Shown: positions 16,288-51,558 of the stretch, in pieces
Position numbering within the stretch: position 1 is the stretch's first letter
Layout: every line of letters begins with the position of its first letter
Source of the DNA: a virus
Lineage: Duplodnaviria > Caudoviricetes
IMG/VR virus record: IMGVR_UViG_3300009788_000018
Span: 1 to 56,833 of that record
Length of the DNA: 56,833 bases
Strand: one strand, 5' to 3'
Program-made: the position numbers and the translations under genes
Notes under the pieces: model-generated
What the model saw: the letters and a program-made list of their open reading frames with translations, nothing else
The model's database searches: none
What the model was told of the DNA's origin: nothing

Positions 16288-17858
16288 TATTTGATCCCCG
16301 CTATTCTCATAACCTTGGCCGCTTCTTTTGAAAGTCTACCTGTGCGAAACTGAACAAAAGCCTCAGCGAATAACTCGTGGCTACTCTCTGCAGCATACTT
16401 TCCTATTTGTTTTTTGACAGCCGTCTTGTTCATCTTCAGCATCCAGTAATCAAACAGTTTTCTTTGAGTAGCTTTAGGTAAGGTCCTCTCTAATACATGA
16501 CCAAACTCATGAGTGGATAAGTCGACAGGTGTCTTTGAAGCCCACCATTTCTTTTTATGTAAGACCTTAGCAACATCTTCCATATCGAACTTAGCTTTTG
16601 ATCCGAACCACTTTGAACTAAAGGTTATTTGGGACTTTCCTTTGGGCAGGTCCGTAACTATACCCATCGAGTCTCCATCTCCACCATCAAGTTTGCGCAT
16701 AACCTTGTTATTACCCATACCAGCTCTGAACTTACCTTTGGTCTTTGGATATTGACTGGCCAAGAAGTTTAGCTCTTCTTCAACTTGATCTTTGAATACA
16801 GGGTCCATTCCCTTCAGATTAATATTCTTAGAGCTTAGCGGTTTAGCCGTCGAGGCAGGTTTGACAGTTGCTCTGGCAGGGGCAGTTCTCTGTGAACCTC
16901 CAACATGGCCAAGCTTCCTTAATGCCCTTCGTATTTTTCTCTTCTCTGCCGGATCTGTTTCCTTTCCTAACTTCTTTAACAGTCCTCCAACATGATCTGC
17001 TCTCACGGCCTTAGGTGGAGAACTAGCCTGTATTGCTTTATCGTTTATAACGGGTAGCATAACACATCGACAGTTAGGATGTACTGGTATAAGAGTGGCA
17101 GCTTCTTTTGGAGGATAAGCATTACCATCTAACTCTCGGCACTCAGAAGAAGTTTCAGCATCATCAAATATACTGAATTCTAATTCCTTTACTCCAAGAT
17201 CTTCCATCCCTTTGGAATAACCAATATTCTGAGCTCTAGCTGTTTCAGTTCGAGCAATAGACTGAGTTCTTTGGCGATGAGTCTTAGCTGCATATCGATC
17301 TGTCCTCTTGTCTATATCCTTTGCAGTAAGGTTAGGAAACTTCTCTTTATCACTAAGCCTTTCACGAAAGTTAATGACGGATTCGGTCTGTCTTCCAGTC
17401 AGTCCAACTATAGGTCGAAGCTCCCTGGAAATTTTATCCATCGATTTACCATCTTTAATACCCTGACTAATGTAAGTGCGAACACCTTTCTTAGTTTCAC
17501 CGTTTACCTCTCTAACCATCTCGGCCGTAAACTTGTTAGCAGCCTTTACTGACTCAGGATTAAGTATATCAAAACTACCCTGTACCTCGAACATTTTATA
17601 AGCTTCTTTACCACCAGAGTTCATGATCTGCAATGTCGTAGGTCTGACAATCTCTTCTCCACCATCTTGAAGGAACTCCCAGTCTATGACATTACCAGTA
17701 ACATCCTTCTGGAATTTATTACGAAGGGTAGTATTGATCTCCTTGATAGTAAACGCAAACCATCTCTGTATCGTTTCCGTATAGATAACCTGATTACGCT
17801 TAGATAATCTATACAACGTATTGTGCAGAGCATTAAATTTTCTTATACAGGTTTGCAT
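16287..17858 (-). CDS. MuF/SPP1 gp7 minor head protein with C-terminal zincin (HExxH) domain
   Basis: IARTETARA and P.HPNCRC MuF motifs; THEFGH...YA....ELFAEAF. Confidence 0.85.
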   Translation of the reverse strand: MQTCIRKFNALHNTLYRLSKRNQVIYTETIQRWFAFTIKEINTTLRNKFQKDVTGNVIDWEFLQDGGEEIVRPTTLQIMNSGGKEAYKMFEVQGSFDILNPESVKAANKFTAEMVREVNGETKKGVRTYISQGIKDGKSMDKISRELRPIVGLTGRQTESVINFRERLSDKEKFPNLTAKDIDKRTDRYAAKTHRQRTQSIARTETARAQNIGYSKGMEDLGVKELEFSIFDDAETSSECRELDGNAYPPKEAATLIPVHPNCRCVMLPVINDKAIQASSPPKAVRADHVGGLLKKLGKETDPAEKRKIRRALRKLGHVGGSQRTAPARATVKPASTAKPLSSKNINLKGMDPVFKDQVEEELNFLASQYPKTKGKFRAGMGNNKVMRKLDGGDGDSMGIVTDLPKGKSQITFSSKWFGSKAKFDMEDVAKVLHKKKWWASKTPVDLSTHEFGHVLERTLPKATQRKLFDYWMLKMNKTAVKKQIGKYAAESSHELFAEAFVQFRTGRLSKEAAKVMRIAGIK

Positions 17859-18289
17859 TATACTCTAATAACCTTTCCACGATGATCATTCCCAGGAAGC
17901 GAAGCTTTCTTACCAAATCTACGGATAAAGAAATACCAAAGTTTAGCTCTTAGTTTACTCATTCCATCTTCAAGACAAAGCTCGATAAGATATTTATCGG
18001 CCATAGCTCTAAACATACTTCGAGTTGAGTCAGTAAGAGGACTTTCCCTTAACACTTGATAAAGAACATCATGTACTAATGAACCACGATAATTTGTTTT
18101 ATCATCCCAAGTTGGACCGCTTGCGCCATCCCAAGCATAACCTTTCTTAATAGCTAACTTGCTCTTACGTAAAAAGAAATACTCATGTTGATATTCCAGG
18201 CCCAAGTCAAATCCTGGAAGTGTATGATCTTGAACCTCTTTGACCCTATACTTATAACCTTCAAGTTTTTCAAAAGTTAATTTGCTCAT
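17858..18289 (-). CDS. DUF1353-like protein
   Basis: GYAWDGASGP, SLVHDVLYQ, AD motifs. Confidence 0.75.
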   Translation of the reverse strand: MSKLTFEKLEGYKYRVKEVQDHTLPGFDLGLEYQHEYFFLRKSKLAIKKGYAWDGASGPTWDDKTNYRGSLVHDVLYQVLRESPLTDSTRSMFRAMADKYLIELCLEDGMSKLRAKLWYFFIRRFGKKASLPGNDHRGKVIRV

Positions 18290-18291
18290 CT

Positions 18292-18663
18292 TTAGTTACC
18301 TTTCTTAGAAGCACGACCACCCATAATAGCATTACCGAGAATGGAACCAAGAGCTATCCAAGTCACAGGATCTTTTTCACGGCCCTTTAGTTCTTCGATC
18401 TTTTCAACCACTTTAGGTTTGACTGTTATAACACCATCAATATTAGCCACACCTTCCTTTAGCCTGGCGGTCTCAACGTTAAGTTCATTTACTGCTTCGA
18501 TAAATTCTCCTTGTGCATTATCAGACATTTCCTTCATAGCAGCTACGCCAGTTCCGAATCCTACAACAAAAGACTCTTCGACACATCCTACCAGGAGCAA
18601 ACCCAAAACAAGCACTACTAAATAAACTACTAGTTCTTTTGCAACAATACCTTTTCTATTCAT
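18292..18663 (-). CDS. Lipoprotein/membrane protein (lysis-accessory candidate)
   Basis: Start ATG 18663 overlaps the portal end; LLVGC lipobox; hydrophobic C-terminus. Confidence 0.5.
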   Translation of the reverse strand: MNRKGIVAKELVVYLVVLVLGLLLVGCVEESFVVGFGTGVAAMKEMSDNAQGEFIEAVNELNVETARLKEGVANIDGVITVKPKVVEKIEELKGREKDPVTWIALGSILGNAIMGGRASKKGN

Positions 18664-20083
18664 TTTCTTCTTCCCCACTTTCTTCTTCAAGTTCTGGTTC
18701 GCCCAACGGTTCATCTGGTTCTCCAACCTCAACGAAGCTAGTTCCCATATAGAACTTGTCTCCTCCTGAATAAGCAGGAAGACCTAATTCAACTCTAGCC
18801 TCGTTAGGAGTTAGCGTACCATTTTGAATTTGCTTGTTTGTTCGTTCAACCTCAGCATCATGGTCTCTAGTGTCAATCTCGTTGAATTGGAATGTATACA
18901 CATCTGAACCAATGAGCTTGTTCATTATGTCAGACAGATCAAGCTGTAGCGGTTTAACTACAGACTGAACATAGATCTTGTTAGCTTCTTCTGCGACGTT
19001 ACCTCCAAGCTTACCAACAATTCTGACACCTATCCTTTCAGGTGGCATCGAGAAAGAGATAAGAATGTGTTCTCGTCTAGTTTGTTCGTATAACTTGAAG
19101 CTGGCCTCCTTTACCTCCTTACCTAAAGGAGTGTAATGGAACTTACAGTTATCAGGCTGAGTAATAACCAACGACTTGTGTCCGTTCTCAGCACCTTTCA
19201 GATTAGCGTTCAAGAATTCAGTGACAGTCTTATCAGAGCCCTCTTCCCACTCACCTTCAAGAACGATGATGGCAGAGGGTACTCCATAGTTTTCAAAGAA
19301 AGCTAGGTTGTAATCTCGTAAACCGATCATAGCCATTATATCGCCAGTAGCAGCTATTGAATTAGGCACTCCATAGTAATCAGACTTAGGGTAATACTTC
19401 TTAAAGAAGATCATCTCATTAGCCTTAGTTCTGAAGCTTAAACCTTTTCCTTCTTTACCTTTGTCCTTACCATCTTTCCAGGCTATGTCCTTTTTAGATC
19501 CAAACTTCTTGAACCATACCTTCTTCTGGCCTCGAACCTGGACATACTTTCGATTAGAGATATGAACTCGAAGAGTCTGAGCAGGAACTTGATAGATCTC
19601 AGCTACCTCGCCCTTCTTGTTCTTAACTATTTCTAAACCAAACCAGCCCATCGAACCCCAGTCGATTAGAAGCTTATTAAGGATAGTGCGTAAAGCTTCT
19701 TCCTCGTTAGGTTTGGTCAGGAACTCATTTATCCTAGCGAGCTCAGTCTTGCTCTCTGACTTACCTTCCTTCAAAGTTATATTCCAGCCCAGTCCTGCTA
19801 CGTCAATAGCTAATTGATTGACGCATCTATATAGGATAGAGTTGGATTCATACAAGTTGAGCAACACTTCTGGCCGATAAGGAGGAGGAACTAATTGATT
19901 GCTCGCCATCCAGGTCTGCTTCTGTTTAAGCTGTTTAGAGTTAGTATCATTCACCTCTATCTCAGCAGACTTAAGAACCTCGTATGGAAAGACTCCTTTG
20001 TCAGTCTGGATAAATACCTTGCCCTTTGGTATATCAGGAAGAATAGACTTTTCTATTTTCTTTTTTGATTTAGCCATTATCAA
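18656..20083 (-). CDS. Portal protein (PBSX family)
   Basis: YYGVP, FFEN.GVP, T.NEAR..LGL....GGD. Confidence 0.92.
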   Translation of the reverse strand: MIMAKSKKKIEKSILPDIPKGKVFIQTDKGVFPYEVLKSAEIEVNDTNSKQLKQKQTWMASNQLVPPPYRPEVLLNLYESNSILYRCVNQLAIDVAGLGWNITLKEGKSESKTELARINEFLTKPNEEEALRTILNKLLIDWGSMGWFGLEIVKNKKGEVAEIYQVPAQTLRVHISNRKYVQVRGQKKVWFKKFGSKKDIAWKDGKDKGKEGKGLSFRTKANEMIFFKKYYPKSDYYGVPNSIAATGDIMAMIGLRDYNLAFFENYGVPSAIIVLEGEWEEGSDKTVTEFLNANLKGAENGHKSLVITQPDNCKFHYTPLGKEVKEASFKLYEQTRREHILISFSMPPERIGVRIVGKLGGNVAEEANKIYVQSVVKPLQLDLSDIMNKLIGSDVYTFQFNEIDTRDHDAEVERTNKQIQNGTLTPNEARVELGLPAYSGGDKFYMGTSFVEVGEPDEPLGEPELEEESGEEENE

Positions 20084-20351: not shown

Positions 20352-20354
20352 GAC

Positions 20355-20651: not shown

Positions 20652-20665
20652 TGCAACTCTCCTTT

Positions 20666-21967
20666 CTATGCAGCTATTACACTGCCTTTCTTTCTCTTAC
20701 CATCAGTTGAGTATATAACATATCTGGTAACGTCCAGAGTATGGTCATCTTTCCCTACCGGAATATCAGCAGGGTTTCTTTTGTTAGTTCCCTTAGGATA
20801 ATGATAAGAAGGAAACTCACGACAGGTATTTCTACAAGTGTTGAAAATGTACAGGCTCGGCTTTTTATTCTCTTTAACCTTTAGCTTAGATTGTACCAGC
20901 TCAATACCACGAGCGATATCTTTATGAGCACACCTAGTCGGAATGCCCGCCTTCCTCATGTCAGACCTGTTCTCTGCATTCTCAGGATCTGCCCAGTTAG
21001 CTAGATACTGCTCTTTACCACTGAGACGTTTAACGTTAATGATATGTTCTTGAATACCAGTTCTGGCTTGGTAGTACTCACGGAAGACGTACCAGTTCTC
21101 GTCCTTATCCTTCGCCATCCATAGACAACAGAATGGATTAGTAAAGCCAAAGTCAAATCCCCTGTACAAACCCCAACCCTCAGGAATCTCAAATGGCTTG
21201 ATAACATGGACCGATCTACTAAAGGTACTGTACACTGCACCATGGAAGGATGCGAACTTACCTTCGATTCTAGTTGTCTGTGTTTCGGCAGGCCAACCAG
21301 CGATAAGCTTATCTATTCTAGCATCTGCGATATAACCGCCTCGGCTTTTTCGGTTAGAGTTCAGATTAGCATAGAACACCTCATCTGTGTCAGGCAGATC
21401 TTCGATTCGTTCTTCTAGTTCAGATTGTGGCAGAACAGGCGTCATAGACCAAGAGATATATCCTTCTTTGACTAATAGCCTTGCTTGGATCTCGTCGAAT
21501 ATACCAACAAAATCATGATGGCATTGTTCATCACAGTAACAGGAGTCAATTGCTCTACCCTGGAATAGTTCACGGCCTTGATTAAAAGCTTTGAACTCGA
21601 TCTTGTGACCATTCTTTAAGAAGACTTTTCTAGGTACCTTATCTTGACCATAAACTATATTAGCAATATGATGTTTAGGAATAAGTTGCTCTAGGTTATC
21701 AGCCCAGAGAATATCTCGGACCTGTTCCCAGGATTCAATACAACACCAGTGTGTTCCTTTACGAATATTCTTATAAGGATGAATGTTTAAAACAACCTGA
21801 GCAAGATCGATCATATTAGTATGAGTCTTACCAGACTGGTTTCCGCCAAAGAACCACTTAATGTCAGCGTTCGACTTATGGAAGTCACTCTGTGTGGTAT
21901 CATCTTCCAATGGTTTATATAAAGCTAGTTTAGGTCCTAGCCACTTTATCTGGGTAGTCGTTAACAT
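20666..21967 (-). CDS. terL: Terminase large subunit
   Basis: Walker A GGNQSGKT, Walker B YCDE, MTP coupling motif, nuclease GFDFG, WADP and DDH.LD..RY. Confidence 0.95.
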   Translation of the reverse strand: MLTTTQIKWLGPKLALYKPLEDDTTQSDFHKSNADIKWFFGGNQSGKTHTNMIDLAQVVLNIHPYKNIRKGTHWCCIESWEQVRDILWADNLEQLIPKHHIANIVYGQDKVPRKVFLKNGHKIEFKAFNQGRELFQGRAIDSCYCDEQCHHDFVGIFDEIQARLLVKEGYISWSMTPVLPQSELEERIEDLPDTDEVFYANLNSNRKSRGGYIADARIDKLIAGWPAETQTTRIEGKFASFHGAVYSTFSRSVHVIKPFEIPEGWGLYRGFDFGFTNPFCCLWMAKDKDENWYVFREYYQARTGIQEHIINVKRLSGKEQYLANWADPENAENRSDMRKAGIPTRCAHKDIARGIELVQSKLKVKENKKPSLYIFNTCRNTCREFPSYHYPKGTNKRNPADIPVGKDDHTLDVTRYVIYSTDGKRKKGSVIAA

Positions 21968-25352: not shown

Positions 25353-25871
25353 TTACTTGTTGAGATTCATCAGGAAATATCGGCCTACTCCTACTGCATC
25401 AGCCTGGTCGGGTTGGGTAATTGTTATCCCGAAGGTACGTTTAATACGTCTCTGTGTGTCTTCCTTTTTGGTGTTCCCTTTCCACTTACGTACCCCCAAT
25501 AGATGGACCTTACAACCCATCCTTTTAGCTCCCATCCTTATGCTATGCACTACAGCGGTCAGTTTAAGAACGGACCCTGAGTTATTTGCACCTTCTCCTT
25601 TTTCAGTACCTATAAAGATCGCAGGTTCCTCTATTACTACTATATCAATACAGTATTCCTTGATAAGGCTATGGACATCTATTAGGAGTATATCCATGCG
25701 CTGCATCCAGTCAAGGCTTTTGTTCTTTATCTGAAATACTCCACTGTCCATATACTTGTATCGGGTCTGTCCTACGTTAAATATGGCCCATCCTAGGTTT
25801 TCAGTACCAGGATCTATTGCAAGTAGCTTACGTATTATTTTAGGGTTCTTTTTCTTGTATTTTGGTGGCAT
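25353..25871 (-). CDS. ruvC: RuvC-like Holliday junction resolvase
   Basis: LAIDPG...GWA, VVIE, WK, D.ADA.G. Confidence 0.85.
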   Translation of the reverse strand: MPPKYKKKNPKIIRKLLAIDPGTENLGWAIFNVGQTRYKYMDSGVFQIKNKSLDWMQRMDILLIDVHSLIKEYCIDIVVIEEPAIFIGTEKGEGANNSGSVLKLTAVVHSIRMGAKRMGCKVHLLGVRKWKGNTKKEDTQRRIKRTFGITITQPDQADAVGVGRYFLMNLNK

Positions 25872-25921
25872 TTGTAAATTCCTTAATTTTCAGTCCTATT
25901 AGTGGTTATCCTCTTTAGCGT

Positions 25922-25951
25922 ATTATAAACGAAGTAATTCTATAAGTCAGG
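25922..25951 (-). promoter_or_regulatory. Sigma70-like leftward promoter
   Basis: CTGACT-17nt-TATAAT on the minus strand upstream of ruvC. Confidence 0.6.
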
Positions 25952-25953
25952 AA

Positions 25954-26160
25954 AAAACCTTCGTATGGCAGATCGTGTAATTAAATAGTTACATACACCA
26001 TGTTTTTACGTACGAAGGTGTACGAAGGTTTTATTCAATCCTATAAGAATTGCATTTAAAATAGGTCAAAAGAATCAAAGCTCTGTTTCTCTTCATAAGT
26101 CTATATTATATATATCTATATATATATATATCTATATTGGTTTATTTATTTATATTATAT
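25954..26160. other. AT-rich divergent intergenic region with repeats (candidate origin/operator)
   Basis: 12-bp inverted repeat 25954-25965/26021-26032, tandem GTACGAAGGT, (TA)n tract at 26101-26137. Confidence 0.45.
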
Positions 26161-26301
26161 GATGAGCAGTATAGTAATAAGTTATAGGGGGGTAAGTTAC
26201 CTCCTTCGGGGACCTAAGAGGAAGAGGACAATTGCATTGTAAGCTGTTATATAGCCTAATATCCTGTATATACGCTCATCTCACAAAATAAATAAATAAA
26301 T

Positions 26302-26331
26302 CCTGACATATTTAATCCCTTATGGTATACT
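26302..26331 (+). promoter_or_regulatory. Sigma70-like rightward promoter with extended -10
   Basis: CTGACA-17nt-TATACT with TG; shares CCTGACA and CTTATGGTATA with 48252-48281. Confidence 0.7.
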
Positions 26332-26335
26332 ACGG

Positions 26336-26879: not shown

Positions 26880-26915
26880 AAACCATTTTCTAAGGTATAT
26901 AAAGGAAGCAATGCT

Positions 26916-27325: not shown

Positions 27326-27335
27326 GGAGAAAGCA

Positions 27336-27880: not shown

Positions 27881-27893
27881 AGGAGTAAGGCAA

Positions 27894-29209: not shown

Positions 29210-29698
29210 ATGATTAAAGATTCTGATATCGCAAAAAAATTAAAGCCCTCTGAAGTTGAAGAAATAGTTGAGTTATTAGGACAAAACTTTAGATCCGAAA
29301 TTATGGCCAGAATGAATCCTGTCCTATCTCCACATGATTATGCTGACTACTATGCAGTGGCTATTCAAAAACTTGATAAAGTACGTGAACTTCTATTCGG
29401 CTCAGATTGTATGGTAGAGATGGGTTATAAGTGGAAGTTATTAAAAAAGGAAGAGTCTAAGAAAGAAAAGAAGAGCAAGAAAGCTAAGAAAAAGTATTCT
29501 AAGAAAAAGAAATACTCTAAAAAGAAGAAGATAGATAAATGGCAAGGTTTTAAAGATAATGTATATGATGATGGACCCTCAGAAGATAGTCAAATACACA
29601 AGCTGACTAAGAAACTAAAGCGGGCGACAGATCCGGCGGACAAACGTAAAATCCGCAAACAGTTAAGGAAATTAGGACACACAGGTGGCACACGATAA
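29210..29698 (+). CDS. Lys-rich protein ending in the LRKLGHxGG module
   Basis: KKKYSKK repeats; C-terminal TDPADKRKIRKQLRKLGHTGGTR. Confidence 0.7.
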   Translation: MIKDSDIAKKLKPSEVEEIVELLGQNFRSEIMARMNPVLSPHDYADYYAVAIQKLDKVRELLFGSDCMVEMGYKWKLLKKEESKKEKKSKKAKKKYSKKKKYSKKKKIDKWQGFKDNVYDDGPSEDSQIHKLTKKLKRATDPADKRKIRKQLRKLGHTGGTR

Positions 29699-41971: not shown

Positions 41972-42297
41972 AGAAGACTCGGATAGGTATTACTCAAAAA
42001 GGTAAAGTAGCTAACATGGAGTACTACGCTACTGTGAACTTTTTTAAGGACACCACTGAACCTGGCGAGATCTTTATCAAGATCGCCAAGGAAGGTTCAA
42101 CTATAGCCGGACTGATAGATGCTCTTGCTATTACTATTAGTGTAGCATTGCAGTACAGTGTTCCTTGGGAAATACTTGGAAAGAAATATCTGCAAACTAT
42201 ATTTGATCCTAGAGATGACGAAGCTAGTTCATTGGTTGATGGGATCACTAAAACCATAGACGAAGTTATTGAGATAAGAAAGGAGTTGATCAAGTGA
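41944..42297 (+). CDS. TSCPD-domain protein (like the class II RNR C-terminal domain)
   Basis: Y.TVN.....PGEIFIKIAKEGST..GL.DA....S.ALQY.VP, S.VD. Confidence 0.8.
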   Translation: MHTAQRRKLEKTRIGITQKGKVANMEYYATVNFFKDTTEPGEIFIKIAKEGSTIAGLIDALAITISVALQYSVPWEILGKKYLQTIFDPRDDEASSLVDGITKTIDEVIEIRKELIK

Positions 42298-42968
42298 ATA
42301 TCGACGACGTAACAGACCAAGTTGAAATACCTGGCAACCCAGTGATTAGGATCTTCGCTCTTCAAAGGGTACTGCAGTCCAAGTACCATCACATCGAAGT
42401 GGCGAATGGAATTAACTATCCTCTTGCACCTTGGAACATTGATGACAGTGCTGTTCAGTATATTCTCAAGGATATATTCTGGCGCACTACTGAGGAACTC
42501 TGTGAAGCTATGGAGGTTATACCTAGCGACTCAGATTTTGCTAACTGGAAAGCTCGGTGGGGGGTTAATTCTGATCTCAGGCATTTCTTCGAGGAACTGG
42601 CTGATGCTCTGCACTTCCTGGTCGAAGCTTCAATCATAGCAGAGATGAACGAGAACGAGATCGAGATTGCTATCTGTCCTATCCTTGATGAGCCAGTTGT
42701 TTTTAATTGTAATGATGACTTCGATGCCAGGTTACTTGTAGCGGAAGTAATCTTTAGTCTAGGTCTAGCCGCCAACACCTTGAAGAATAAGCCATGGAAA
42801 CAAACTCAGATGCCAACTGACAAGGACAGGTTCCAAGCAAAGCTTCTTACGGCTTGGCAGGACTTTGCGACAATGTGGAACGAGATGGGCTTCTCTCTGG
42901 CTGATATATTCATTCTATACACTCGGAAGCATACTGTTAACACGTGGAGACAGGAGACGAACTACTAA
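42294..42968 (+). CDS. Dimeric dUTPase/dCTPase (all-alpha)
   Basis: EEL.EA, EELADALHF, KNKPWK, Y..K..VN..RQ...Y. Confidence 0.85.
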   Translation: MNIDDVTDQVEIPGNPVIRIFALQRVLQSKYHHIEVANGINYPLAPWNIDDSAVQYILKDIFWRTTEELCEAMEVIPSDSDFANWKARWGVNSDLRHFFEELADALHFLVEASIIAEMNENEIEIAICPILDEPVVFNCNDDFDARLLVAEVIFSLGLAANTLKNKPWKQTQMPTDKDRFQAKLLTAWQDFATMWNEMGFSLADIFILYTRKHTVNTWRQETNY

Positions 42969-43765: not shown

Positions 43766-44046
43766 AAAAGACTAAGGTAGTTCATATTAAAAGATGTAGA
43801 TCTCCAATAATAGTAGCGATTGACCGTACTACTATATTTGGAAGTCGCTTCCCTCTTAGTCGATATTCTCGTGGGGAATCAATTAAGAGATACAAGGAAT
43901 ATTTCTATGCAAGGCTCGAGTCAGACCCTGCCTTCAAAGCGGCCGTTCATAAATTAAAAGGATGCTTACTTGGGTGTTGGTGTAAACCTAAAGCTTGTCA
44001 CGGTGATATCATAGTAGAATATTTAGAGAAAGGACAAACGAAATGA
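43762..44046 (+). CDS. DUF4326 protein
   Basis: I.R.T.FG..F, L.G..LGCWC.P..CHGD. Confidence 0.88.
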   Translation: MKKTKVVHIKRCRSPIIVAIDRTTIFGSRFPLSRYSRGESIKRYKEYFYARLESDPAFKAAVHKLKGCLLGCWCKPKACHGDIIVEYLEKGQTK

Positions 44047-44825
44047 GGATCTATACAAATCTGTTTGAAGCAATGCGAGAAACCGAACGAGATCTTATGG
44101 AGATGGGTATCGAGGTTGCTTCAAATACAATGCAGGACAAAAATGTTAAGGGAAATTCCGACTACATTACAAAAGAAGTCCAGGGATATGCTTTCAAACT
44201 TGTCAATTGGAAGTGGGATGGAGAGATGGCCAAAAGAGTTATGGAATACTTCTTCAAAGAAAAAGGCGGCGCTGTCTTAACTTATGTTCTGGCCGAACTC
44301 AGAGATCGAGTTTCAGGTGTAGCTACTAATCCAGGCCAAGCTTATACACATCGAAAAAATGTATGGGATGAATTCTTACACAATGGTAAGTTCGCCTATA
44401 CCTACAGCGAACGACTAGCTCCGCAGATAAAAACCATCCTGGAAGAACTGGTACAGAATCCTGAGTCTCGTCAAGCTATTCTGAATATACATAGCAATAT
44501 CTGTCCAAGTATACGTAACCTAGAGCATACCGGACTTGGTATTAACCTGATAGAAGGTAGTGCTGACCTGGCTAACCGGGGTGGCGGTGGTCGTATCCCT
44601 TGTAGTATGTACTATCAAATCATGGTCCGTAAAGGAAGAGTTGACCTGATTTACACAATGCGCTCCTGTGATTTGCTTACGCATTTTCCAGTGGATATTT
44701 GTCTTGCTGCGTTAATGCAGGACTGGTTCGCAGATCAACTTGGCTTGGAGATAGGTATGCTGACTTATTTTGCCGGCTCGCTCCATGCTTATAATAAGGA
44801 TCTTAAAGTGAGAGGAATATTTTAA
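44043..44825 (+). CDS. Thymidylate synthase homolog, probable dCMP (hydroxy)methyltransferase
   Basis: YTYSER, P.SRQA, RIPCS, MRSCD.....PVD, GSLHAY. Confidence 0.85.
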   Translation: MRIYTNLFEAMRETERDLMEMGIEVASNTMQDKNVKGNSDYITKEVQGYAFKLVNWKWDGEMAKRVMEYFFKEKGGAVLTYVLAELRDRVSGVATNPGQAYTHRKNVWDEFLHNGKFAYTYSERLAPQIKTILEELVQNPESRQAILNIHSNICPSIRNLEHTGLGINLIEGSADLANRGGGGRIPCSMYYQIMVRKGRVDLIYTMRSCDLLTHFPVDICLAALMQDWFADQLGLEIGMLTYFAGSLHAYNKDLKVRGIF

Positions 44826-44826
44826 A

Positions 44827-45810
44827 ATGAAGTTAATGAAACCAAAAGTTGAACATCTCGATTGCACTGGCGATCCGCTGGTAGTAATCGAAAGAGCAGG
44901 TCGAACCTGTTACAAAAGTGAAGATAAGATCACAGACGAGTCAGCGCCAAAGTTCGTTAAGATGTTGCTAGATCGAAAACATCATGCTATGATCGAACAT
45001 GCTAGTCTTGTCTTCAGTGTCAGTAATTTCTTGTATAATCGGTTGATAGCATTGCAAGATCCTTACAGAGACCATATTTCTCTGACTCGTGAAGCGCATG
45101 GTTGTATTCTTTCAGGAAACGTCAGAGCGCTCAGAGATATCTGCGAAGATACTGAGGTTGACACGCATGTCAGAAACTCGATAGCCATAGCTGCTGGAGA
45201 TGTAGTTCCTATGCTATTCACAGGTTTCCTTGAGTTGCCGCTATCAAGAAAGAACTGTATGGCCGCTATCTATTCCGGTGAGCTTACCCAGATGGAGCAG
45301 ATTGCCCATCAGTACTTCTCCTATCGAGTCATCTGTGATCGTGGCGTAACTCACGAGATAGTTCGGCATAGACCTTTCAGTTATGGTCAAGAGAGTTCGA
45401 GGTATTGTAATTATAAAGGTGGAGTAACCTTTATCATACCTCCATGGATGGATCTTTGCGAAGGAGACTACGAAGTAGACGAGAACGTGGAGTGGTTCGA
45501 GATAGATAACGAGACAGTGTCAGTCGATGACCTTAATGGTCAGACGGTTAAATGGCTGGCTTCATTATATGAATCTGAGTCTACCTATCAAGCTTTGTTA
45601 GAGCATGAAGGATGGACTCCTCAACAGGCACGATCAGTATTACCTAACAGTCTCAAAACTGAGATCATCATGACTGCTAACCTTCGCCGATGGGATCACT
45701 TCTTTACAATGAGGTGTAGTAAATACGCCCATCCTCAGATGCAGGAAGTTGCTAACATGATCTGGGAAGATATGCAAAAAAGAGTTTTGTGGTTACCTGA
45801 TTACTATTAA
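44827..45810 (+). CDS. thyX: FAD-dependent thymidylate synthase
   Basis: R.CY.SE, H....EH, RHR..S..QESSRY, ARSVLPN, AHPQM. Confidence 0.93.
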   Translation: MKLMKPKVEHLDCTGDPLVVIERAGRTCYKSEDKITDESAPKFVKMLLDRKHHAMIEHASLVFSVSNFLYNRLIALQDPYRDHISLTREAHGCILSGNVRALRDICEDTEVDTHVRNSIAIAAGDVVPMLFTGFLELPLSRKNCMAAIYSGELTQMEQIAHQYFSYRVICDRGVTHEIVRHRPFSYGQESSRYCNYKGGVTFIIPPWMDLCEGDYEVDENVEWFEIDNETVSVDDLNGQTVKWLASLYESESTYQALLEHEGWTPQQARSVLPNSLKTEIIMTANLRRWDHFFTMRCSKYAHPQMQEVANMIWEDMQKRVLWLPDYY

Positions 45811-45824
45811 GAAGGGAGCGTGAA

Positions 45825-46274
45825 ATGTTTAATGATGATAGACCTAAACGTAGGAATATCTATATGAGGTTTGCTTTGGATTGGGCAGGTCGAGCTTTGT
45901 GTAAGCAGGATAATCGAGCTGTAGGTTGTGTGATCACTACCGAAGATATGAGAGTAACTTTGGCCACAGGCTACAATGGTCCACCTAAGCAACTAGGTAA
46001 TGACGCTTGTCGTAATGAGAAAGGTAACTGTGGCTGTCTTCATGCTGAAGCCAACGCGATTGCTATGGTAGATGGACGAATACCAAACAAGATCATGTTC
46101 GTAACGATGTGTCCTTGCGAAACTTGTGCTACTCTCATTGCTCAGAGCAATATTACCAAGGTTTTTTATTACCAAGATTATCGGAATAAAGCTGGTTTAG
46201 AAAGATTACAAGCATGCGGAATAGACGTAATAAGAATAAACGATCTAGGTTGCTCCCGCCCTTACCTTGTCTAG
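45825..46274 (+). CDS. dCMP deaminase
   Basis: VGCVI, TGYNG.P, HAEANA, PC..C. Confidence 0.92.
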   Translation: MFNDDRPKRRNIYMRFALDWAGRALCKQDNRAVGCVITTEDMRVTLATGYNGPPKQLGNDACRNEKGNCGCLHAEANAIAMVDGRIPNKIMFVTMCPCETCATLIAQSNITKVFYYQDYRNKAGLERLQACGIDVIRINDLGCSRPYLV

Positions 46275-48256
46275 AAGGTAACGTAGTTGCAATTGATACC
46301 GAGACTACGGGTTTAAATCCGTATGACAATGGTGTTCACGACAAGTTCGGGAATGCTTCAGGAGCTCGTATCTTTTGCTGGAGTTACAAAACTAGCAAGG
46401 GTGAGTGGGGCTTCATGCTAAAGAATCCTCGGAACATTCGTTGGCTAAAGCGATTGATGAATGACCCTACTAAGCATATAGTATTTCAAAATGCTAAGTT
46501 CGATTTAAAGATGCTTTCCTTCGAAGGTCTCGATGTCCTTAGTCTTAAGGCAGACATCCATTGCACGATGATCCTATCCAAGGTACTGGACTCAGTAGAG
46601 AAGCGTCACAATCTGAGGTTCTTGGCCAGGAAGCATCTTGGCTGGACCACCGAAGATAAAGACGAGATTGAGTACTGGTTGAAAACTAATAAGCGGAGCT
46701 TTACCAAAGAGCATGGACGATCTCCAAACTTTAGAGATGCCCCTCTTAGTCTAGTCAAGGACAGAGTTAGGTGGGACACTGAAGCTACATTGGAAATCTT
46801 TGGAGTGCTTTATCCTCGAGCTCGCCGCATCTGTAACGAGCTTTACGAAACAGAACGGCATTTACTCTTTGTCTGTCTGGACATGGAAAGTACGGGAGTG
46901 TTGATTGATATAACCCGAGCTAGAGAGTTAAAGGCCGAAGCCCAGATTACCTTGGATAGAATCAAAGCTGACTTGGATAAACTGATATGTCCTCTTACCT
47001 TCGAGAAGAAAAAGAAAGGTGAGATGATAAAAGTAACTGTAGATGAGTTTAATCCTGGTAGTAGTGCTTTGCAGTTACCGGCAGCTTTCGAGAAGCTAGG
47101 AATTCCATTAAAGTATAAGACCAAACCAAAGAAGAACCACAAGACAGGTGGTAAGACAGGAGGAGGTAACTGGGCCTTCGATGAATACGCAATGATCCGC
47201 TATGTGTCTGAACCATTGGTGGATGTCATTCGAGATTCAGGAGAAGAGGGCTGGCCAGGAGATAAGTTTTACAGGGCTGTTAGGAAAACTGTACGGAAGC
47301 ATAAACTAAATAAGCGAGAGTTGCTACCACCGCTGATTTTAAAATATAGGCAGCTCTCGAAGATGATCTCTACTTATTATGATCATTTCATCAACGACTG
47401 CTTGGACGTACATTTCACACCTGCTGGTATAGAAATAGGAACGATACACTGTAAGTTTAATCAGAGTACAGCTATGACCGGAAGGTTTAGTTCATCTGAG
47501 GTTAACCTACAAAATCAGCCTAGAAAACTTGGGCCTCGCGAATGCTTTATTACCAGGAACGGTCGGAACCATTATCACTTCGACTATGATCAGATAGAGA
47601 TGAAGATGTTTGTTCACTTTGCCGAAGATACCAAGATGGCTGAGGCAATCAAAGATGATATTCATGCACACGTAGCTGCAGAAGTATATAACATTCCTCT
47701 CGAGGAGGTAACCTCAGAAAGAAGGAAGCGAGCAAAGGGAGTTAACTTTGGAATTATATATGGCTCAGGTCCTGCCACTATGGCCGAGACTTTAACTAAG
47801 AAAGGCTTACCAACTACAGTAGCCCAATCAACTAGACTAGTTCTGGGTTACCATAAGAAGTTCCCATCTGTTCAACGAACTGTTCGTGAACTGAAGCAAG
47901 ATCTGAAACAGAAAGGCTATGTTACAAATCCATTCGGCCGTAGGTATCGGATCAAACTGAAGTTTGCATATAAAGCTTTGAACTATATGTGTCAAGGTAC
48001 TTCGGCAGACCAGATGAAAAAAGCTATGGTCGATATTTGGTATTGGTTGAGAGAGAATAATCTGAAGAGCAAGATGATCCTGACTGTACATGATGAAATA
48101 GTACTAGAGGTTCCACCAGTCGAAGAGAGACTTGTGCTGCCTAAGGTTAAAGCAATCATGGAAGACCTGGAAACTTACTTTGTTCCTATGACCGTATCAG
48201 TAGAGAAGGTCGCCATGAACTGGAGTAAAAAAGAAAAAATTAAACTTGCAGCCTGA
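46214..48256 (+). CDS. polA: DNA polymerase family A with 3'-5' exonuclease
   Basis: DTETTG, QNAKFD, TGRFSS...NLQN.P, DYDQIE, R..AK.VNFGIIYG, N...QGT.AD, TVHDE. Confidence 0.96.
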   Translation: MRNRRNKNKRSRLLPPLPCLEGNVVAIDTETTGLNPYDNGVHDKFGNASGARIFCWSYKTSKGEWGFMLKNPRNIRWLKRLMNDPTKHIVFQNAKFDLKMLSFEGLDVLSLKADIHCTMILSKVLDSVEKRHNLRFLARKHLGWTTEDKDEIEYWLKTNKRSFTKEHGRSPNFRDAPLSLVKDRVRWDTEATLEIFGVLYPRARRICNELYETERHLLFVCLDMESTGVLIDITRARELKAEAQITLDRIKADLDKLICPLTFEKKKKGEMIKVTVDEFNPGSSALQLPAAFEKLGIPLKYKTKPKKNHKTGGKTGGGNWAFDEYAMIRYVSEPLVDVIRDSGEEGWPGDKFYRAVRKTVRKHKLNKRELLPPLILKYRQLSKMISTYYDHFINDCLDVHFTPAGIEIGTIHCKFNQSTAMTGRFSSSEVNLQNQPRKLGPRECFITRNGRNHYHFDYDQIEMKMFVHFAEDTKMAEAIKDDIHAHVAAEVYNIPLEEVTSERRKRAKGVNFGIIYGSGPATMAETLTKKGLPTTVAQSTRLVLGYHKKFPSVQRTVRELKQDLKQKGYVTNPFGRRYRIKLKFAYKALNYMCQGTSADQMKKAMVDIWYWLRENNLKSKMILTVHDEIVLEVPPVEERLVLPKVKAIMEDLETYFVPMTVSVEKVAMNWSKKEKIKLAA

Positions 48257-48281
48257 CAAATAAAATAGCTTATGGTATATT
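48252..48281 (+). promoter_or_regulatory. Sigma70-like promoter for the candidate sRNA
   Basis: CTGACA-17nt-TATATT with extended TG; near twin of 26302-26331. Confidence 0.7.
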
Positions 48282-48286
48282 AATAT

Positions 48287-48417
48287 CTAAGCTGACTTAG
48301 GAAACAGTAGTTGTTAATCAAGGAGGTGATCATGAAATATCGGAAACAGTAGTCCAAGGATGGAAGAGGGACCCTGCCACTATGCAATTTGCCTTGCTCC
48401 GGTGGTGGGGTTTTTTT
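48287..48417 (+). ncRNA. Candidate small regulatory RNA (anti-RBS loop, GGA repeats, 6-codon ORF)
   Basis: Bounded by a promoter and an intrinsic terminator; loop ATTTGCCTTGCTCC is complementary to the repeated gene leaders. Confidence 0.7.
48371..48417 (+). terminator. Intrinsic terminator with 19-nt loop
   Basis: ACCCTGCCACT/GGTGGTGGGGT 11-bp stem (three G-U pairs) followed by a T run. Confidence 0.8.
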
Positions 48418-48493
48418 ATGTCCTCATCGGAACCGCACGCAGCAGGCATACCCATGATAGGCCGGATTAAGTTATTTTTGAACTATTTTTCTG

Positions 48494-48522
48494 TGTAAGT
48501 CTTTTATTTACAATGACTTAAC
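48494..48522. promoter_or_regulatory. Palindromic GTAAGT-N15-ACTTA site
   Basis: Same arms and spacing as the 52541 and 52613 repeats. Confidence 0.5.
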
Positions 48523-48636
48523 ATAAATTTTGGTCCAAAAATGGTATTTTTATGGCTATAGGAGCCCTTATCCTATATAATTTACATGTACCTAATAGGG
48601 GCCGACGATATAAACCTTATTTAAAGGAGCAAGGCA

Positions 48637-49041
48637 ATGAATCAGGTAACAAACTTATTACAGAAGTTGGCAAAGGCTAAGACCGCAACTGAGAAGAGGA
48701 GCATCAGGATTCGTCTTCGAAAGCTTGGCCACATCGGAGGGACTCGAGGTAAGGTCGTCGAGCCTAAACCTAAAAAGGAATTAACCAAAAAACAAAAGGA
48801 AAGTATCGGTAAACACAATGACGAAGTAACTCGTCGAATTAAATCCGGAGAGTATCGGGTTGACTTTTCAAATACAGGAGGGAGCAATAAAAAAACTTGT
48901 TGGAACTGTCAGAAATACAAATCTTGCCGTAGGAGTTTAAAAAAGAATAATATCAATCCAAAAGATCCTAGCAATGAAGCTATTAAGTTATGTTCAGTTT
49001 GGCGCCTGAACAAAGAAAGGAGCAAGGCAAATGGTAAGTAA
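48637..49041 (+). CDS. Probable early protein: N-terminal LRKLGHxGG module plus Cys cluster
   Basis: TATEKRSIRIRLRKLGHIGGTR; CWNC....C...C; conserved leader. Confidence 0.7.
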   Translation: MNQVTNLLQKLAKAKTATEKRSIRIRLRKLGHIGGTRGKVVEPKPKKELTKKQKESIGKHNDEVTRRIKSGEYRVDFSNTGGSNKKTCWNCQKYKSCRRSLKKNNINPKDPSNEAIKLCSVWRLNKERSKANGK

Positions 49042-50305
49042 AAATAAAAAGGTCAGTAAGAAGAAGCCGTCCCCAAAACCAACACTTCTTACTCACACTG
49101 AGGACAACGTCCTATTCATCGACGAGATCAAGGTTCCTGACAAGTGGAGTCCTGCTACCGATACCTTAGACAAGCTACTCAATCAGGCTGAGGTACTTGC
49201 TAAAACTGAGGGGGCCTTGTCGATCAAGATCAATGTCAAAGGTAAACTGAGCAAGTCCATAGCTGAGAGGCATAAGTTTAAGGAGATAGGAAAGCTCCCT
49301 ACCAAGCCTGTCACTTACATCATGAAGCGGAACCTTAACTTCGAGGCCAGGGCAGAGAAACCTATCAACCCTAAGTACAGAACACCGACTCAGCTTATCG
49401 AAGCTATCACCAAGGACCTACAACAGTTAATGAACCGGTCAGAGGATATTACTGATATAGGTCACGAGGTAGTAGCAGCTGAGAAGACTTCCAAGATACT
49501 GTCTCGCCGGTCAGCCAACGGGAAGTACTCGCTTAATCCTCACAGGTTCCACCGACTGATACTCGACGAGATATCAGGCTCTGGCCTTGGCCGCTTAGTT
49601 AAAGAGGCCCTGAAGGATAGGCCTGACCTTAAGGTTTTAAAAACAGACGAGGAAGATATTAAGGAAGGTAAGAGAAGACGCAAGAGTATCCTGGCCGGCA
49701 ACATGGCCAAGGAGCTTAAGGTACAAGCCAAGGTAATACTGAAGCAGATGGACGCCGACGTCAACGGCTTAGTATCTGATAGACAACTGATGATGAGTTG
49801 TAAGGCTGAGGTGGCCAGGACGGCTAAACTAGTAGTTAACAATTTAAAGGAAATGGAAACAAGTTTAGATAACTTAGAAAAATGGAAAGGGGTAATTCAA
49901 AACAGGTCAAGGGTATTACGTCTTCATAGACGAAAAGAGATAGCACTAAGCGAGAAGATCTTCGGTGATAGCCCTGCCGAACTAACTTCTAAAAAATCCA
50001 CAAGGGCTGACAAAGGAGATTCAGAAATGGCAAAGAAAAAAGTAAAGAAAGCAAAGAAGGCTGCACCAAAAGGGAACATCAAGGAATTGATCGCCAAGCT
50101 TGGCAAGACAAAGGACCCAACCGAAAAACGTAAGATCCGTCAGCAGCTGAGGAAGCTCGGTCACACCGGTGGACTCGGTCAGGGAGCCGGTCGTCCTAAG
50201 AAGAGCAAGAAGAAAACTTCCAAGAAGAAAACCAGCAAGAAGGTTAGCAAGAAAGCCAAGAAGGCTAAAGGCAAGAAGAAGTATTCCAAGAAGGCTAAGA
50301 AGTAA
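49031..50305 (+). CDS. Probable early basic protein with C-terminal LRKLGHxGG module and H1-like tail
   Basis: 424-aa ORF; conserved leader. Confidence 0.75.
   Translation: MVSKNKKVSKKKPSPKPTLLTHTEDNVLFIDEIKVPDKWSPATDTLDKLLNQAEVLAKTEGALSIKINVKGKLSKSIAERHKFKEIGKLPTKPVTYIMKRNLNFEARAEKPINPKYRTPTQLIEAITKDLQQLMNRSEDITDIGHEVVAAEKTSKILSRRSANGKYSLNPHRFHRLILDEISGSGLGRLVKEALKDRPDLKVLKTDEEDIKEGKRRRKSILAGNMAKELKVQAKVILKQMDADVNGLVSDRQLMMSCKAEVARTAKLVVNNLKEMETSLDNLEKWKGVIQNRSRVLRLHRRKEIALSEKIFGDSPAELTSKKSTRADKGDSEMAKKKVKKAKKAAPKGNIKELIAKLGKTKDPTEKRKIRQQLRKLGHTGGLGQGAGRPKKSKKKTSKKKTSKKVSKKAKKAKGKKKYSKKAKK
50027..50305 (+). CDS. Nested in-frame 92-aa histone-H1-like protein
   Basis: AAAGGAGATTCAGAA-ATG; composition changes abruptly at MAKKKVKK. 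Confidence 0.6.
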   Translation: MAKKKVKKAKKAAPKGNIKELIAKLGKTKDPTEKRKIRQQLRKLGHTGGLGQGAGRPKKSKKKTSKKKTSKKVSKKAKKAKGKKKYSKKAKK

Positions 50306-50313
50306 GAGCCGAA

Positions 50314-50339
50314 ACCTGTCCTTACTTAAAAGGGCAGGT
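50314..50339 (+). terminator. Stem-loop after the Lys-rich gene (no U tract)
   Basis: ACCTGTCCTT/AAGGGCAGGT. Confidence 0.45.
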
Positions 50340-50412
50340 CTGTCAGGTTGGTAACTGGCATTGATAAGGTAGCCAAAGAAATAACTATAACTTTTAGTTA
50401 AGGAGTAAGGCA

Positions 50413-50568
50413 ATGACAATTCTAACTGAGGCCGATACAGATCTGCATGAAGAAATTCTTGATCGGGTAGAGAAAGAAAGTTTTAGGGATTTTAATTTTA
50501 TTGATGAAGAAACTAAAGCTATGATCCATGAAGAAGAAATGTTCAGATGGATTCATACATTTTGTTAA
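50413..50568 (+). CDS. Small acidic protein (51 aa, not in ORF track)
   Basis: GGAGTAAGGCA-ATG; MTILTEADTDLHEEILDRVEKE... Confidence 0.65.
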   Translation: MTILTEADTDLHEEILDRVEKESFRDFNFIDEETKAMIHEEEMFRWIHTFC

Positions 50569-50586
50569 GAAAGGAGCAAGGCAAAA

Positions 50587-51558
50587 ATGGCAAAGAGTAT
50601 ACAATGGAAAAAAGATGACCGTGTAATGGTAGACTTTGGAGAGGAGTTCTTCAAAGGAACCATTACTAAACTAGTAAGGCAGGGAGCTAAAGTACACTTC
50701 GATGATGGTGAGACCCACGATATAAAATGTTCCAAGCTAGTAAGGCTTAGAGCTAAGAAGCAGAACCTTGGTTCTAAAGCAAAGGCCAGAACCAAAGAAG
50801 AAGCAGGAGGACAAGGTTTTACTCAGTACGTGGTAAAGTGGGATGGTGTTAACTTTAAAGTTAAGGCTGATGAGGGCGAGTTTTATGGATGGTGGAGAAA
50901 GATCCGGGTAAAGGACAGTGACGAGTCAGGTTACGGTGTTGATATCATGGTACGGTATGAAAATCACATATATAATGTAGAGTCCATCCGATATCTTATA
51001 GAAGATCCAAGGGATGATCTGGAATCTCTAAACGCTGATATCTGTGCTGCCATCAATAAGTGGTTCCACTACAAATGTAAAGGTACTTTCGACACTATCA
51101 AAGATCTTCAGCAACGAGCGGAGAAGCCTATGATCAGGGTCTCCCAACTATCAACGATCGACCAGATGATCATTGACCTGAAGGCCTACCGAGATACTGC
51201 CCTGCGGTGTGGTGGTCGTAGGACCATGGCCCTTGAGGGGGATAATCCTGACACCGAACCTAGCATGAGAATTGAGATAGACCTATCTGCTCAAGCTGCG
51301 ACCATGAAGGGCAGTAGAGTTCCACCCGTAGGTGAAGGACTGCTATTCGACAACGTAGCTAAGGACATATCCAAAGGAGGCAAGAACCGAAAGGCTATGT
51401 CAACTAAGGTGGAAGGTAACTCGGATAACATCAAGGGTATTCTTAAACGGCTAGAGAAAACTACTGATAAGGCAGAGCGACGTAAGCTCCGAGGCATTCT
51501 GAGAAAGATGGGCCACACCGGTGGAACAAGAAAGAAAACTAAGAAGGGCAAGAAGTAA
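50587..51558 (+). CDS. Probable early protein: N-terminal Tudor-like domain, C-terminal LRKMGHTGG module
   Basis: WKKDDRV.VD...KG.ITK...AKVHFDDGE; conserved leader. Confidence 0.7.
   Translation: MAKSIQWKKDDRVMVDFGEEFFKGTITKLVRQGAKVHFDDGETHDIKCSKLVRLRAKKQNLGSKAKARTKEEAGGQGFTQYVVKWDGVNFKVKADEGEFYGWWRKIRVKDSDESGYGVDIMVRYENHIYNVESIRYLIEDPRDDLESLNADICAAINKWFHYKCKGTFDTIKDLQQRAEKPMIRVSQLSTIDQMIIDLKAYRDTALRCGGRRTMALEGDNPDTEPSMRIEIDLSAQAATMKGSRVPPVGEGLLFDNVAKDISKGGKNRKAMSTKVEGNSDNIKGILKRLEKTTDKAERRKLRGILRKMGHTGGTRKKTKKGKK

Follow-up and report, generated by a model that had tools for sequence, protein, structure and literature searches.

The present analysis concerns a 34-residue protein module, recognizable by its closing GHxGG motif, in the genome of an uncultured tailed phage (Duplodnaviria; Caudoviricetes). 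The IMG/VR record, IMGVR_UViG_3300009788_000018, was analysed over its entire length of 56,833 nucleotides (nt), which is referred to here as the window. The module is attached to five proteins that are otherwise unrelated, recurs in at least several hundred proteins of other uncultured phages, and is predicted to fold as a small helical hairpin with a stripe of invariant arginines. It may serve as a tag that anchors its carriers on DNA, or on nucleic acid more generally, without sequence specificity, a reading to which a probability of roughly 0.4 is assigned.

A regular-expression scan of all six frames found exactly five copies in the window (Table 1), the same five, with the same peptides and positions, that an initial annotation had picked out from the sequence. 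When a profile built from 153 relatives was run, with filters off, on all window frames of at least 25 amino acids (aa), these copies were returned with expectation values (E) between 7e-20 and 2e-16, and since the sixth-best frame reached just E 2.1, the count is exactly five, well outside what chance would give. Chance resemblance or low complexity was rejected as a source of the matches on this gap (E ≤ 2e-16 against 2.1) and on the full-length coverage of the profile in a search at the scale of 1.84e9 proteins. The carriers had been described as unrelated proteins that include the virion protein MuF, and this is upheld: with the module masked, the best pairwise BLASTP match among the five has an E of 1.1, showing that they are unrelated outside the module, and the first carrier matches the MuF family PF04233 at 51.6 bits (cut-off 29.6; aa 125–267) and phrog_3517, head morphogenesis, at E 9.4e-25. 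The claim that the DNA had diverged while the peptide was kept also held. Over a core of 29 codons the copies share 45–61% of nucleotides and 45–72% of amino acids, with synonymous divergence (dS) saturated, and so not computable, in nine of the ten copy pairs and nonsynonymous divergence (dN) of 0.24–0.55. As synonymous sites are saturated while the peptide is conserved, the copies are old and have been maintained by selection at the peptide level. Recent duplication or gene conversion was ruled out by the saturated dS and by module identities that are about the same within genomes as between them.

The module follows the pattern [IV]xxL[LVI]xxLxxx[ST]xDxxEKRx[IL]RxxLRx[LM]GHxGG[LA]x, and in the numbering of the 153 aligned modules the consensus reads [IV]8, L11, [LVI]12, L15, [ST]xD20, E23 followed by K, R25, [IL]27, R28, L31, R32, [LM]34, G35, H36, G38 and G39. 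Conservation is 100% at R32, G35, G38 and G39, 99% at R28, L31 and H36, 84% at D20 and 82% at R25, all of these being upper bounds because the modules were selected with the profile itself. The aligned stretch, which with its flanks spans up to 49 columns, has a mean net charge of +7.3, and the C-terminal limit can be placed near position 41 because many proteins end one to four residues past the GG. A portable, basic helical hairpin had been suggested at the outset, and AlphaFold2, supplied with a 69-row alignment, returned a helix at residues 2–14, a turn of three residues and a second helix at 18–30 with a mean predicted local distance difference test (pLDDT) score of 84; most of the helical residues fall in two ten-residue blocks with pLDDT 94 and 93, and the value drops to about 68 in the final ten residues, where the GHxGG lies. 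The predicted structure thus comprises two short amphipathic helices, a capped turn ([ST]xDxxE) and a closing G-H-x-G-G loop. Judged by helical wheel, the hydrophobic faces formed by I/V8, L11, L12 and L15 and by I27, L31 and L34 would pack on each other, leaving R25, R28 and R32, and then H36, as one exposed stripe on the outer face of helix 2.

N-terminal, internal and C-terminal placements had all been reported, and the residue positions in the five carriers agree with this. In MuF, the module lies between the MuF domain and a Pro/Ala/Thr-rich linker, beyond which is a C-terminal HExxH domain. The second carrier has a Lys-rich stretch upstream of its module, and in the third, which has the relatives P0079, P0076 and P0105, the module is followed by a Lys-rich linker and then a Cys-rich, zinc-ribbon-like tail. 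In the fourth, a member of what is here termed family C, the peptide GAGRPKKSKKK after the module has the G-R-P flanked by basic residues that defines an AT-hook core, as judged by pattern match and not by a model score. It is possible that the same gene also gives rise, from an internal ATG, to a nested 92-aa protein with a Lys-rich head, the module, the AT-hook and a Lys-rich tail, a layout for which stand-alone look-alikes exist in metagenomes (e.g., P0153, 92 aa). The fifth carrier, of family A, was modelled (AlphaFold2 pLDDT 81.5) with an N-terminal Tudor/SH3-like barrel and a conserved central alpha/beta domain ahead of the module. Residues 6–58 of this model match Tudor domains (Z 9.1, root-mean-square deviation 1.6 over 53 residues), and the matches in fold searches of the whole model were confined to this Tudor/SH3/KOW-like barrel.

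Beyond the window, 1.84 billion representative proteins were searched exhaustively with HMMER, which gave 253 matches at E ≤ 1e-3, nine of them at E ≤ 1e-10; each represents a cluster at 50% identity, so 253 is a lower bound on the number of carriers. Nearly all of the 150 matches listed span the full profile, in proteins of 45 to 1307 aa. Among the matches are MuF–effector fusions, Lys-rich proteins of at most 100 aa and two recurrent families with the module at the C-terminus. Architectures were counted in 155 stored carriers, Pfam domains in 150 scanned carriers and the features of small carriers in 69. The module lies within 25 aa of the C-terminus in 59 of the 155, internally in 36 and at the N-terminus in 8, and the other 52 are proteins of at most 100 aa that consist of the module plus Lys-rich tails, in many cases on both sides or on one. 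Lysine and arginine together make up 34% of the 30 aa that follow the module, an AT-hook-like GRP occurs within 25 aa after it in 17 carriers, and in family C and several small proteins the sequence GG-L-G-x-G-x-G-R-P-K-K is found there. Clustered with the module masked, the 155 carriers form family A (31, including the carrier at 50587), the MuF family (16), family C (14, including that at 49031), six clusters of two to four, and 79 singletons. At E ≤ 1e-3, Pfam recognized MuF in 14, ADPrib_exo_Tox in nine and ART in three of the 150, with single matches to PARP, SprT-like, ATLF-type, HC2, DnaB_bind and three Tudor-type families; histone H1-like matches were seen in the small carriers (HC2 in three of 69 at E ≤ 0.01) and with one NCBIfam histone-H1-like model. 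Several proteins have tandem or double modules (the MuF of genome G004, P0065, P0029, P0063 and P0116). Ten carrier proteins were looked up and none had a name or an accession. The term grafting, used in the initial annotation, suggests a recent event, and here it was contradicted: carriers of the MuF, family A and family C types bear the module in many distant phages, and because it is kept in each of them, the three are old, inherited architectures.

Other phage genomes, with a GC content of 40–58%, hold between one and five copies each. The 50.6-kb G004, which has terminal repeats, carries five modules distributed over four proteins, one of which, a MuF of 1071 aa, has two in tandem; G002 and G001 have four modules each and G003 has one. 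Cellular copies are rare. No related locus was found in a search of bacterial and archaeal genomes, and a degenerate DNA pattern applied to such genomes gave 53 stretches, of which two encode full-length modules (L039 and L056), one a partial module (L079) and the rest match by pattern alone. The two full-length examples are small chromosomal open reading frames (ORFs) in metagenome-assembled genomes of Acidobacteriaceae (L056:4477-4653 and L039:1996-2193, both on the plus strand), and are module-like with a turn longer by five residues; the first sits amid housekeeping genes (glutamine synthetase, radical SAM, GH32), and the second adjoins genes for Prim-Pol and CHAT-domain proteins. Of two ESM Atlas searches, one gave nothing usable (best score 0.79) and the other no match.

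Gene order is informative about the partner of the module. Carriers lie directly downstream of the DNA polymerase gene in four of four genomes that have the polymerase and replication genes of the window (the window itself, G004, G002 and G001), and in the window this cassette consists of three carrier genes (48637-51558). Capsid and portal matches to the window are absent from G002 and reach only 25–29% identity in G001. Conversely, G003 shares the head genes of the window and a module-bearing MuF, its sole module, without the replication arm. As the linkage to polymerase and the linkage to MuF are uncoupled, the module serves in two genomic settings that do not depend on each other, and its partner is not a lineage-specific capsid protein; the divergent capsids and the spread of GC content likewise indicate a partner common to phages with different capsids and hosts. 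Different carriers of the same genome have modules with an identity of 0.50 (n = 20), against 0.47 for carriers of different genomes (n = 68), small numbers in both cases. Sharing a genome thus makes the copies no more alike, and a fast-evolving, genome-specific partner is disfavoured. On these comparisons of sequence, DNA or another universal partner is a better candidate than the capsid.

This bears directly on the notion that the module is a virion-incorporation tag, which would bind scaffold, capsid interior or portal so that its carriers are packed into the prohead and injected, by analogy with the capsid-targeting sequence of T4 and the helix-turn-helix of P22 scaffolding protein. Such a tag should work at any position, as the module does, and there is a plain link to heads in that MuF is a head protein, that the MuF family and its ADPrib_exo_Tox and ART domains are well represented among the carriers, and that genes for a prohead protease (PF14550, 119 bits) and a scaffold-like protein are present in the window. 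However, carriers other than MuF have their genes in the replication module and not among the head genes, the same conserved module is present in phages with unrelated (G002) or distantly related (G001) capsid and portal proteins, and the expected co-variation with capsid was not seen in any genome-specific form. In phage SPP1, a MuF-type protein binds the portal directly, and if this applies here, MuF would have no need of an additional tag. A role in virion incorporation is, for these reasons, considered unlikely.

The synteny with replication genes can also be read in terms of a protein partner. The module could dock on a single conserved protein and so recruit all carriers to the same machine; the docking site might be an acidic tail or surface on a factor for replication or transcription, from host or phage. 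An invariant arginine stripe with a histidine could recognize an acidic peptide, linkage of the cassette to the replication module holds in all four genomes, and alpha-hairpins of this size do serve as docking motifs, the LTM of HOIL-1L and SHARPIN, the Qua1 of Sam68 and the C-terminal hairpin of UvrB all being among the generic matches of the predicted fold (Z 4.3–4.8). Set against this, genomes of 40–58% GC and a cellular copy in Acidobacteriaceae would demand a nearly universal partner protein, for which no candidate was identified, and in G003 the MuF copy accompanies the structural module although the replication module is a different one. Docking on a protein is thus tenable, if rather doubtful.

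Anchoring on nucleic acid accommodates these observations more simply. The Arg stripe and the glycine loop would clamp the phosphate backbone, most likely that of double-stranded phage DNA, without regard to sequence, and adjacent AT-hooks and lysine-rich tails would add affinity where it is needed. On MuF, the module would hold a MuF–effector fusion on the packaged genome, to leave the capsid together with the DNA, and for the genes downstream of polymerase it would bring their histone-like and accessory products to phage DNA under replication. Given the company of Lys-rich segments and AT-hooks, the synteny, the absence of co-variation and the MuF context, a nonspecific nucleic-acid clamp is the simplest fit; the invariant arginines, the Gly-rich loop and the predicted hairpin lend it support, as does the position of a rare cellular copy (L056) among housekeeping genes. 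Tandem or double copies are what one typically sees in modules whose binding sums several weak contacts.

Several points weigh against DNA anchoring. No match to the module was obtained with the Pfam models of known DNA-binding families (HhH, SAP, AT-hook type), and the fold search (best Z 5.3) singled out no DNA-binding protein. Whatever affinity the carriers have for DNA could come entirely from the AT-hooks and Lys-rich tails, leaving the module free for oligomerization or protein docking, and an acidic protein tail would be just as plausible a ligand for the arginine stripe. In the MuF carriers, moreover, the module is followed by a Pro-rich linker and not by a basic tail, and the comparison of module identities rests on the small numbers given above. 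Oligomerization in particular would have the modules pair as hairpin–hairpin bundles, so that cargo rides on MuF into the capsid or Lys-rich carriers bridge DNA as oligomers, in the manner of nucleoid-associated proteins. With only 30 residues in two helices, a hairpin has little core, and hairpins of this kind frequently pair; genomes encode several carriers (one to five), and designed helical-repeat proteins head the sequence matches in the PDB (E 0.048). Yet the strongest conservation falls on polar and glycine positions (R28, R32, G35, H36, G38, G39) and not on an additional hydrophobic face, and G003 has a single copy, although MuF is itself present in multiple copies in phage heads. A prediction of the two-copy complex scored 0.02 against a mark of 0.42; it was run without controls and bears neither way on the question. 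Pairing of modules is regarded as quite improbable.

The effector-like end of MuF raises a further matter. The C-terminal ~180 aa of the window protein (16290-16841, minus strand) contain an HEFGH motif and match the zincin-type ATLF family PF07737 at 20 bits, below its cut-off of 27.4, with no sequence match in the PDB; this is probably a metallopeptidase-like effector or processing domain. Related MuF carriers have clearer enzyme domains, with ADPrib_exo_Tox scores of 45.4 bits in P0042 and 28.5 bits in P0027, and three large MuF carriers that were scanned singly showed MuF and ADP-ribosyltransferase matches in the same protein. The usual order is MuF domain, module, Pro-rich linker and enzyme domain, as in P0027 (MuF 117–250, module 271–306, ART 339–515). 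Since the module precedes a flexible linker and effector in such fusions, it could be speculated that LGHxGG is a processing site, where a phage or host protease cuts after the double glycine and frees the effector; passages of PMC5512222 take up how polyvalent virion proteins are processed. It is difficult to reconcile this with the 59 of 155 modules that lie within 25 residues of a C-terminus, or with the many proteins, including the product of 29210, that end one to four residues after the GG, because a cut there would release nothing. In G003 the module is near the C-terminus of MuF instead (aa 571–610 of 641), and conservation extends over the whole hairpin and is not limited to the GG. 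Processing at the double glycine is therefore very unlikely indeed.

An extension of the DNA-anchoring proposal, speculative and itself improbable as a full account, is that the module acts as a universal, position-independent label to ride with the genome, by which any protein bearing it would be loaded on phage DNA, packed and injected with it to form an injected phage chromatin. If so, MuF–toxin fusions, family A, family C and the small Lys-rich proteins would together make up a previously unseen injected chromatin, and a tag of 34 residues would suffice to deliver foreign cargo through a siphovirus tail. Whichever partner applies, phages have few short portable tags that direct unrelated proteins to a common destination, and such tags are useful, as illustrated by the T4 capsid-targeting sequence and by the scaffold helix-turn-helix employed in loading virus-like particles. 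The present module is compact, has sharply defined invariant residues, tolerates any position and is common to virion-delivered enzyme fusions and to histone-like proteins encoded beside DNA polymerase. Its definition would name part of several hundred proteins now called hypothetical, and it offers a testable handle on how MuF–effector fusions are held and released. Should DNA binding prove true, it would suggest a phage-encoded chromatin layer in a large uncultured group; should the module be an encapsidation or DNA-hitchhiking tag, it could be used as an engineering part.

Three carriers share a translation leader that had been described as matched by a small RNA. The leader does precede these three, but it is not specific to carriers: the sequence AAAGGAG[CT]AAG[GA][CT]AA(A)ATG stands before nine plus-strand genes (27894, 30538, 35351, 48637, 49031, 50413, 50587, 51599 and 51753), six of which encode non-carriers, and it is a general translation leader of these nine. 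A perfect 14-nt antisense of the leader (ATTTGCCTTGCTCC, 48387-48400; leader site 49019-49032) lies in the 380-nt gap that follows the DNA polymerase gene. Upstream of it is a promoter-like site (48253-48281; 10 of 12 matches, extended -10), and it overlaps a terminator-like hairpin with a T-run (48391-48411). The region 48253-48418 (plus strand) is a candidate for a small RNA of ~110–130 nt, directed against ribosome-binding sites, that could pair with the leaders of the nine genes. In a promoter and terminator scan of 48100-52900, the numbers of sites were no higher than in shuffled sequences.

The window is the entire record of this genome, a single contig of 56,833 base pairs with 41% GC from a tailed phage. 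One minus-strand ORF (1-833 plus 53860-56833; 277 and 990 codons and one spanning codon), which specifies a J-like tail protein, continues in frame across the record ends, from which it follows that the record is circular or circularly permuted. PHROG and Pfam matches identify a siphovirus-type structural arm on the minus strand, and a replication arm on the plus strand that encodes helicase, exonuclease, a Sak4-like annealing protein, primase and DNA polymerase, together with two nucleoside triphosphate (NTP) pyrophosphohydrolases and two thymidylate-synthase-like proteins (Table 1).

Table 1. Module copies and other features of the window (positions in nt; aa, amino acids).
Feature	Position	Strand	Carrier ORF	Regular-expression match	Details
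Module copy 1	16890..16991	-	16287-17858 (-)	16896-16922 (-)	aa 290-323 of MuF (523 aa); E 1.5e-16
Module copy 2	29594..29695	+	29210-29698	29663-29689 (+)	aa 129-162, last 34 residues of 162-aa protein; E 4e-18
Module copy 3	48646..48747	+	48637-49041	48715-48741 (+)	aa 4-37 of 134-aa protein; E 2.1e-16
Module copy 4	50078..50179	+	49031-50305	50147-50173 (+)	aa 350-383 of 424-aa protein (family C); E 7.1e-20
AT-hook-like GRPKK core (50189-50203) and Lys-rich tail	50189..50302	+	49031-50305		directly after copy 4
Candidate nested 92-aa product	50027..50305	+			in-frame ATG, AAGGAG 7 nt upstream
Module copy 5	51430..51531	+	50587-51558	51499-51525 (+)	aa 282-315 of 323-aa protein (family A); E 3.5e-17
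Large terminase	20666-21967	-			PHROG/Pfam matches
Portal	18656-20083	-			PHROG/Pfam matches
MuF	16287-17858	-			PHROG/Pfam matches
XkdF-type prohead protease	14721-15839, C-terminal third	-			PF14550, 119 bits
Scaffold-like protein	13674-14711	-			PHROG/Pfam matches
Major capsid protein	12493-13599	-			PHROG/Pfam matches
Tape measure	2965-5058	-			PHROG/Pfam matches
Family-A DNA polymerase	46214-48256	+			phrog_17, 3.8e-113

Some further features of the genome were noted in passing. The two NTP-pyrophosphohydrolase genes and the two thymidylate-synthase-like genes, the latter adjoining each other (33365-33883, 42294-42968 and 44043-45810), are kept in G004, G002 and G001, and may provide a pathway for a modified pyrimidine in phage DNA. 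The prohead protease domain PF14550 covers aa 257–371, just the last third of its 372-aa ORF, the 250 N-terminal aa having no assigned domain, and the counterpart of this region in G004 is part of a far longer ORF (25468-28806). Between the divergent structural and replication arms is an AT-rich gap (25872-26335) with TATATATA/TCTATATA repeats, palindromes (26107-26138) and a 27-nt inverted repeat (26141-26167 and 26274-26300), which is likely to be a promoter or origin region. An exact 29-nt direct repeat (52541-52569 and 52613-52641, spacing 72 nt) is shortly preceded by a strong terminator-like hairpin (52506-52535). Megablast of 8 kb of the window found no close phage record in GenBank. 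In tblastn searches against 50,697 phage records, neither the family A protein (50587) nor the 134-aa carrier (48637) had a match, and MuF matched 136 records over the MuF domain alone at less than 60% identity (23–32% among the 25 matches listed).

The MuF carriers have published counterparts in the MuF polymorphic toxins (BMC Biol 2017, PMC5576092) and polyvalent proteins (J Bacteriol 2017, PMC5512222). Passages of PMC5512222 describe MuF proteins as components of the head, with fused domains that probably act as effectors once delivered to the host, and the title of one reference listed in PMC5576092 calls the portal-bound procapsid protein of SPP1 a DNA-binding protein. The window MuF and the 16 carriers of the MuF family resemble the published fusions in having an N-terminal MuF domain and a variable C-terminal enzyme domain (ADP-ribosyltransferases, PARP-type, zincin-type), which is putative in the window MuF. 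In the window, the small ORFs 16105-16287 and 15836-16108 lie downstream of the MuF gene. The MuF carriers differ from the published fusions in the hairpin between MuF and effector, which is without mention in the passages of PMC5576092 and PMC5512222 that were consulted (the word 'linker' does not occur in the main text of either), and in that the same module is found here on proteins that are not of virion type. The abstracts of PMC5576092 and PMC12226406 tie the MuF toxin family to temperate phages; the window phage has its own replication module. Keyword searches of the literature and the passages of PMC5576092 and PMC5512222 gave no description of the module, although they are too narrow to show that it is unpublished.

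The initial annotation did not recognize a family for the module, and this agrees with the profile searches, in which the modules, the 150 carriers and the 69 small carriers revealed no characterized domain and no catalogued family for it in Pfam, PHROGs, NCBIfam or PDB sequences; no NCBIfam model fell on the module, and the best match of the sequence profile in the PDB was the designed helical-repeat proteins mentioned above. A fold search of the 40-aa model against 48,161 chains (VIA-align) returned generic hairpins alone (best Z 5.3). The sole curated profile that repeatedly touches the module is Smoothelin (PF12510), with nine of 150 carriers at E ≤ 1e-3 (best 9.5e-6) and seven of 69 small carriers at E ≤ 0.01, but the window copies score 13.2–16.3 bits, below the gathering cut-off of 23. 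Smoothelin positions 21–46 of 50 align to module residues 8–33, the helix-turn-helix part, so that the GHxGG is outside the match, and Smoothelin, a short helical motif, belongs to a eukaryotic, cytoskeletal family unlike the phage module. To our knowledge, no function has been assigned to the Smoothelin motif, and the likeness most likely reflects convergence of idealized hairpins. Two families of short basic proteins gave weak matches: DUF6800 (PF20607) over the hairpin in three of the five window modules (E 0.0044–0.011; 16.3–17.6 bits, cut-off 25), with none in the other two, and in three of 69 small carriers at E ≤ 0.01; and phrog_25824 in the MuF module alone (E 5.4e-5), in two of 69 small carriers at E ≤ 1e-3 and in whole carriers at E 0.0015–0.0048. 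As neither has a known function, they explain nothing about the module. Helix 2 and the glycine loop presumably resemble the HhH and SAP/HeH motifs, whose Pfam models found no match in the five modules (E ≤ 10), the 150 carriers (E ≤ 1e-3) or the 69 small carriers (E ≤ 0.01).

Among known systems, AT-hooks and histone H1-like Lys-rich tails are frequent companions of the module, flanking it in many carriers. These tails are unstructured, whereas the module is a predicted folded hairpin with invariant residues of its own, and is also found without tails, in the MuF carriers. In kind it is comparable to the T4 capsid-targeting sequence, the P22 scaffolding helix-turn-helix, LTM, Qua1 and the C-terminus of UvrB, all of which are likewise short, portable helical elements carried by otherwise unrelated proteins of one system. 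It has no sequence relationship to any of these and its fold matches are generic (Z 4.3–5.3). The T4 signal is N-terminal and is cleaved off, and the P22 element is C-terminal; the module, unlike the T4 signal, is used at N-terminal, internal and C-terminal sites. It is a new protein family within this familiar class of short helical binding and anchoring tags.

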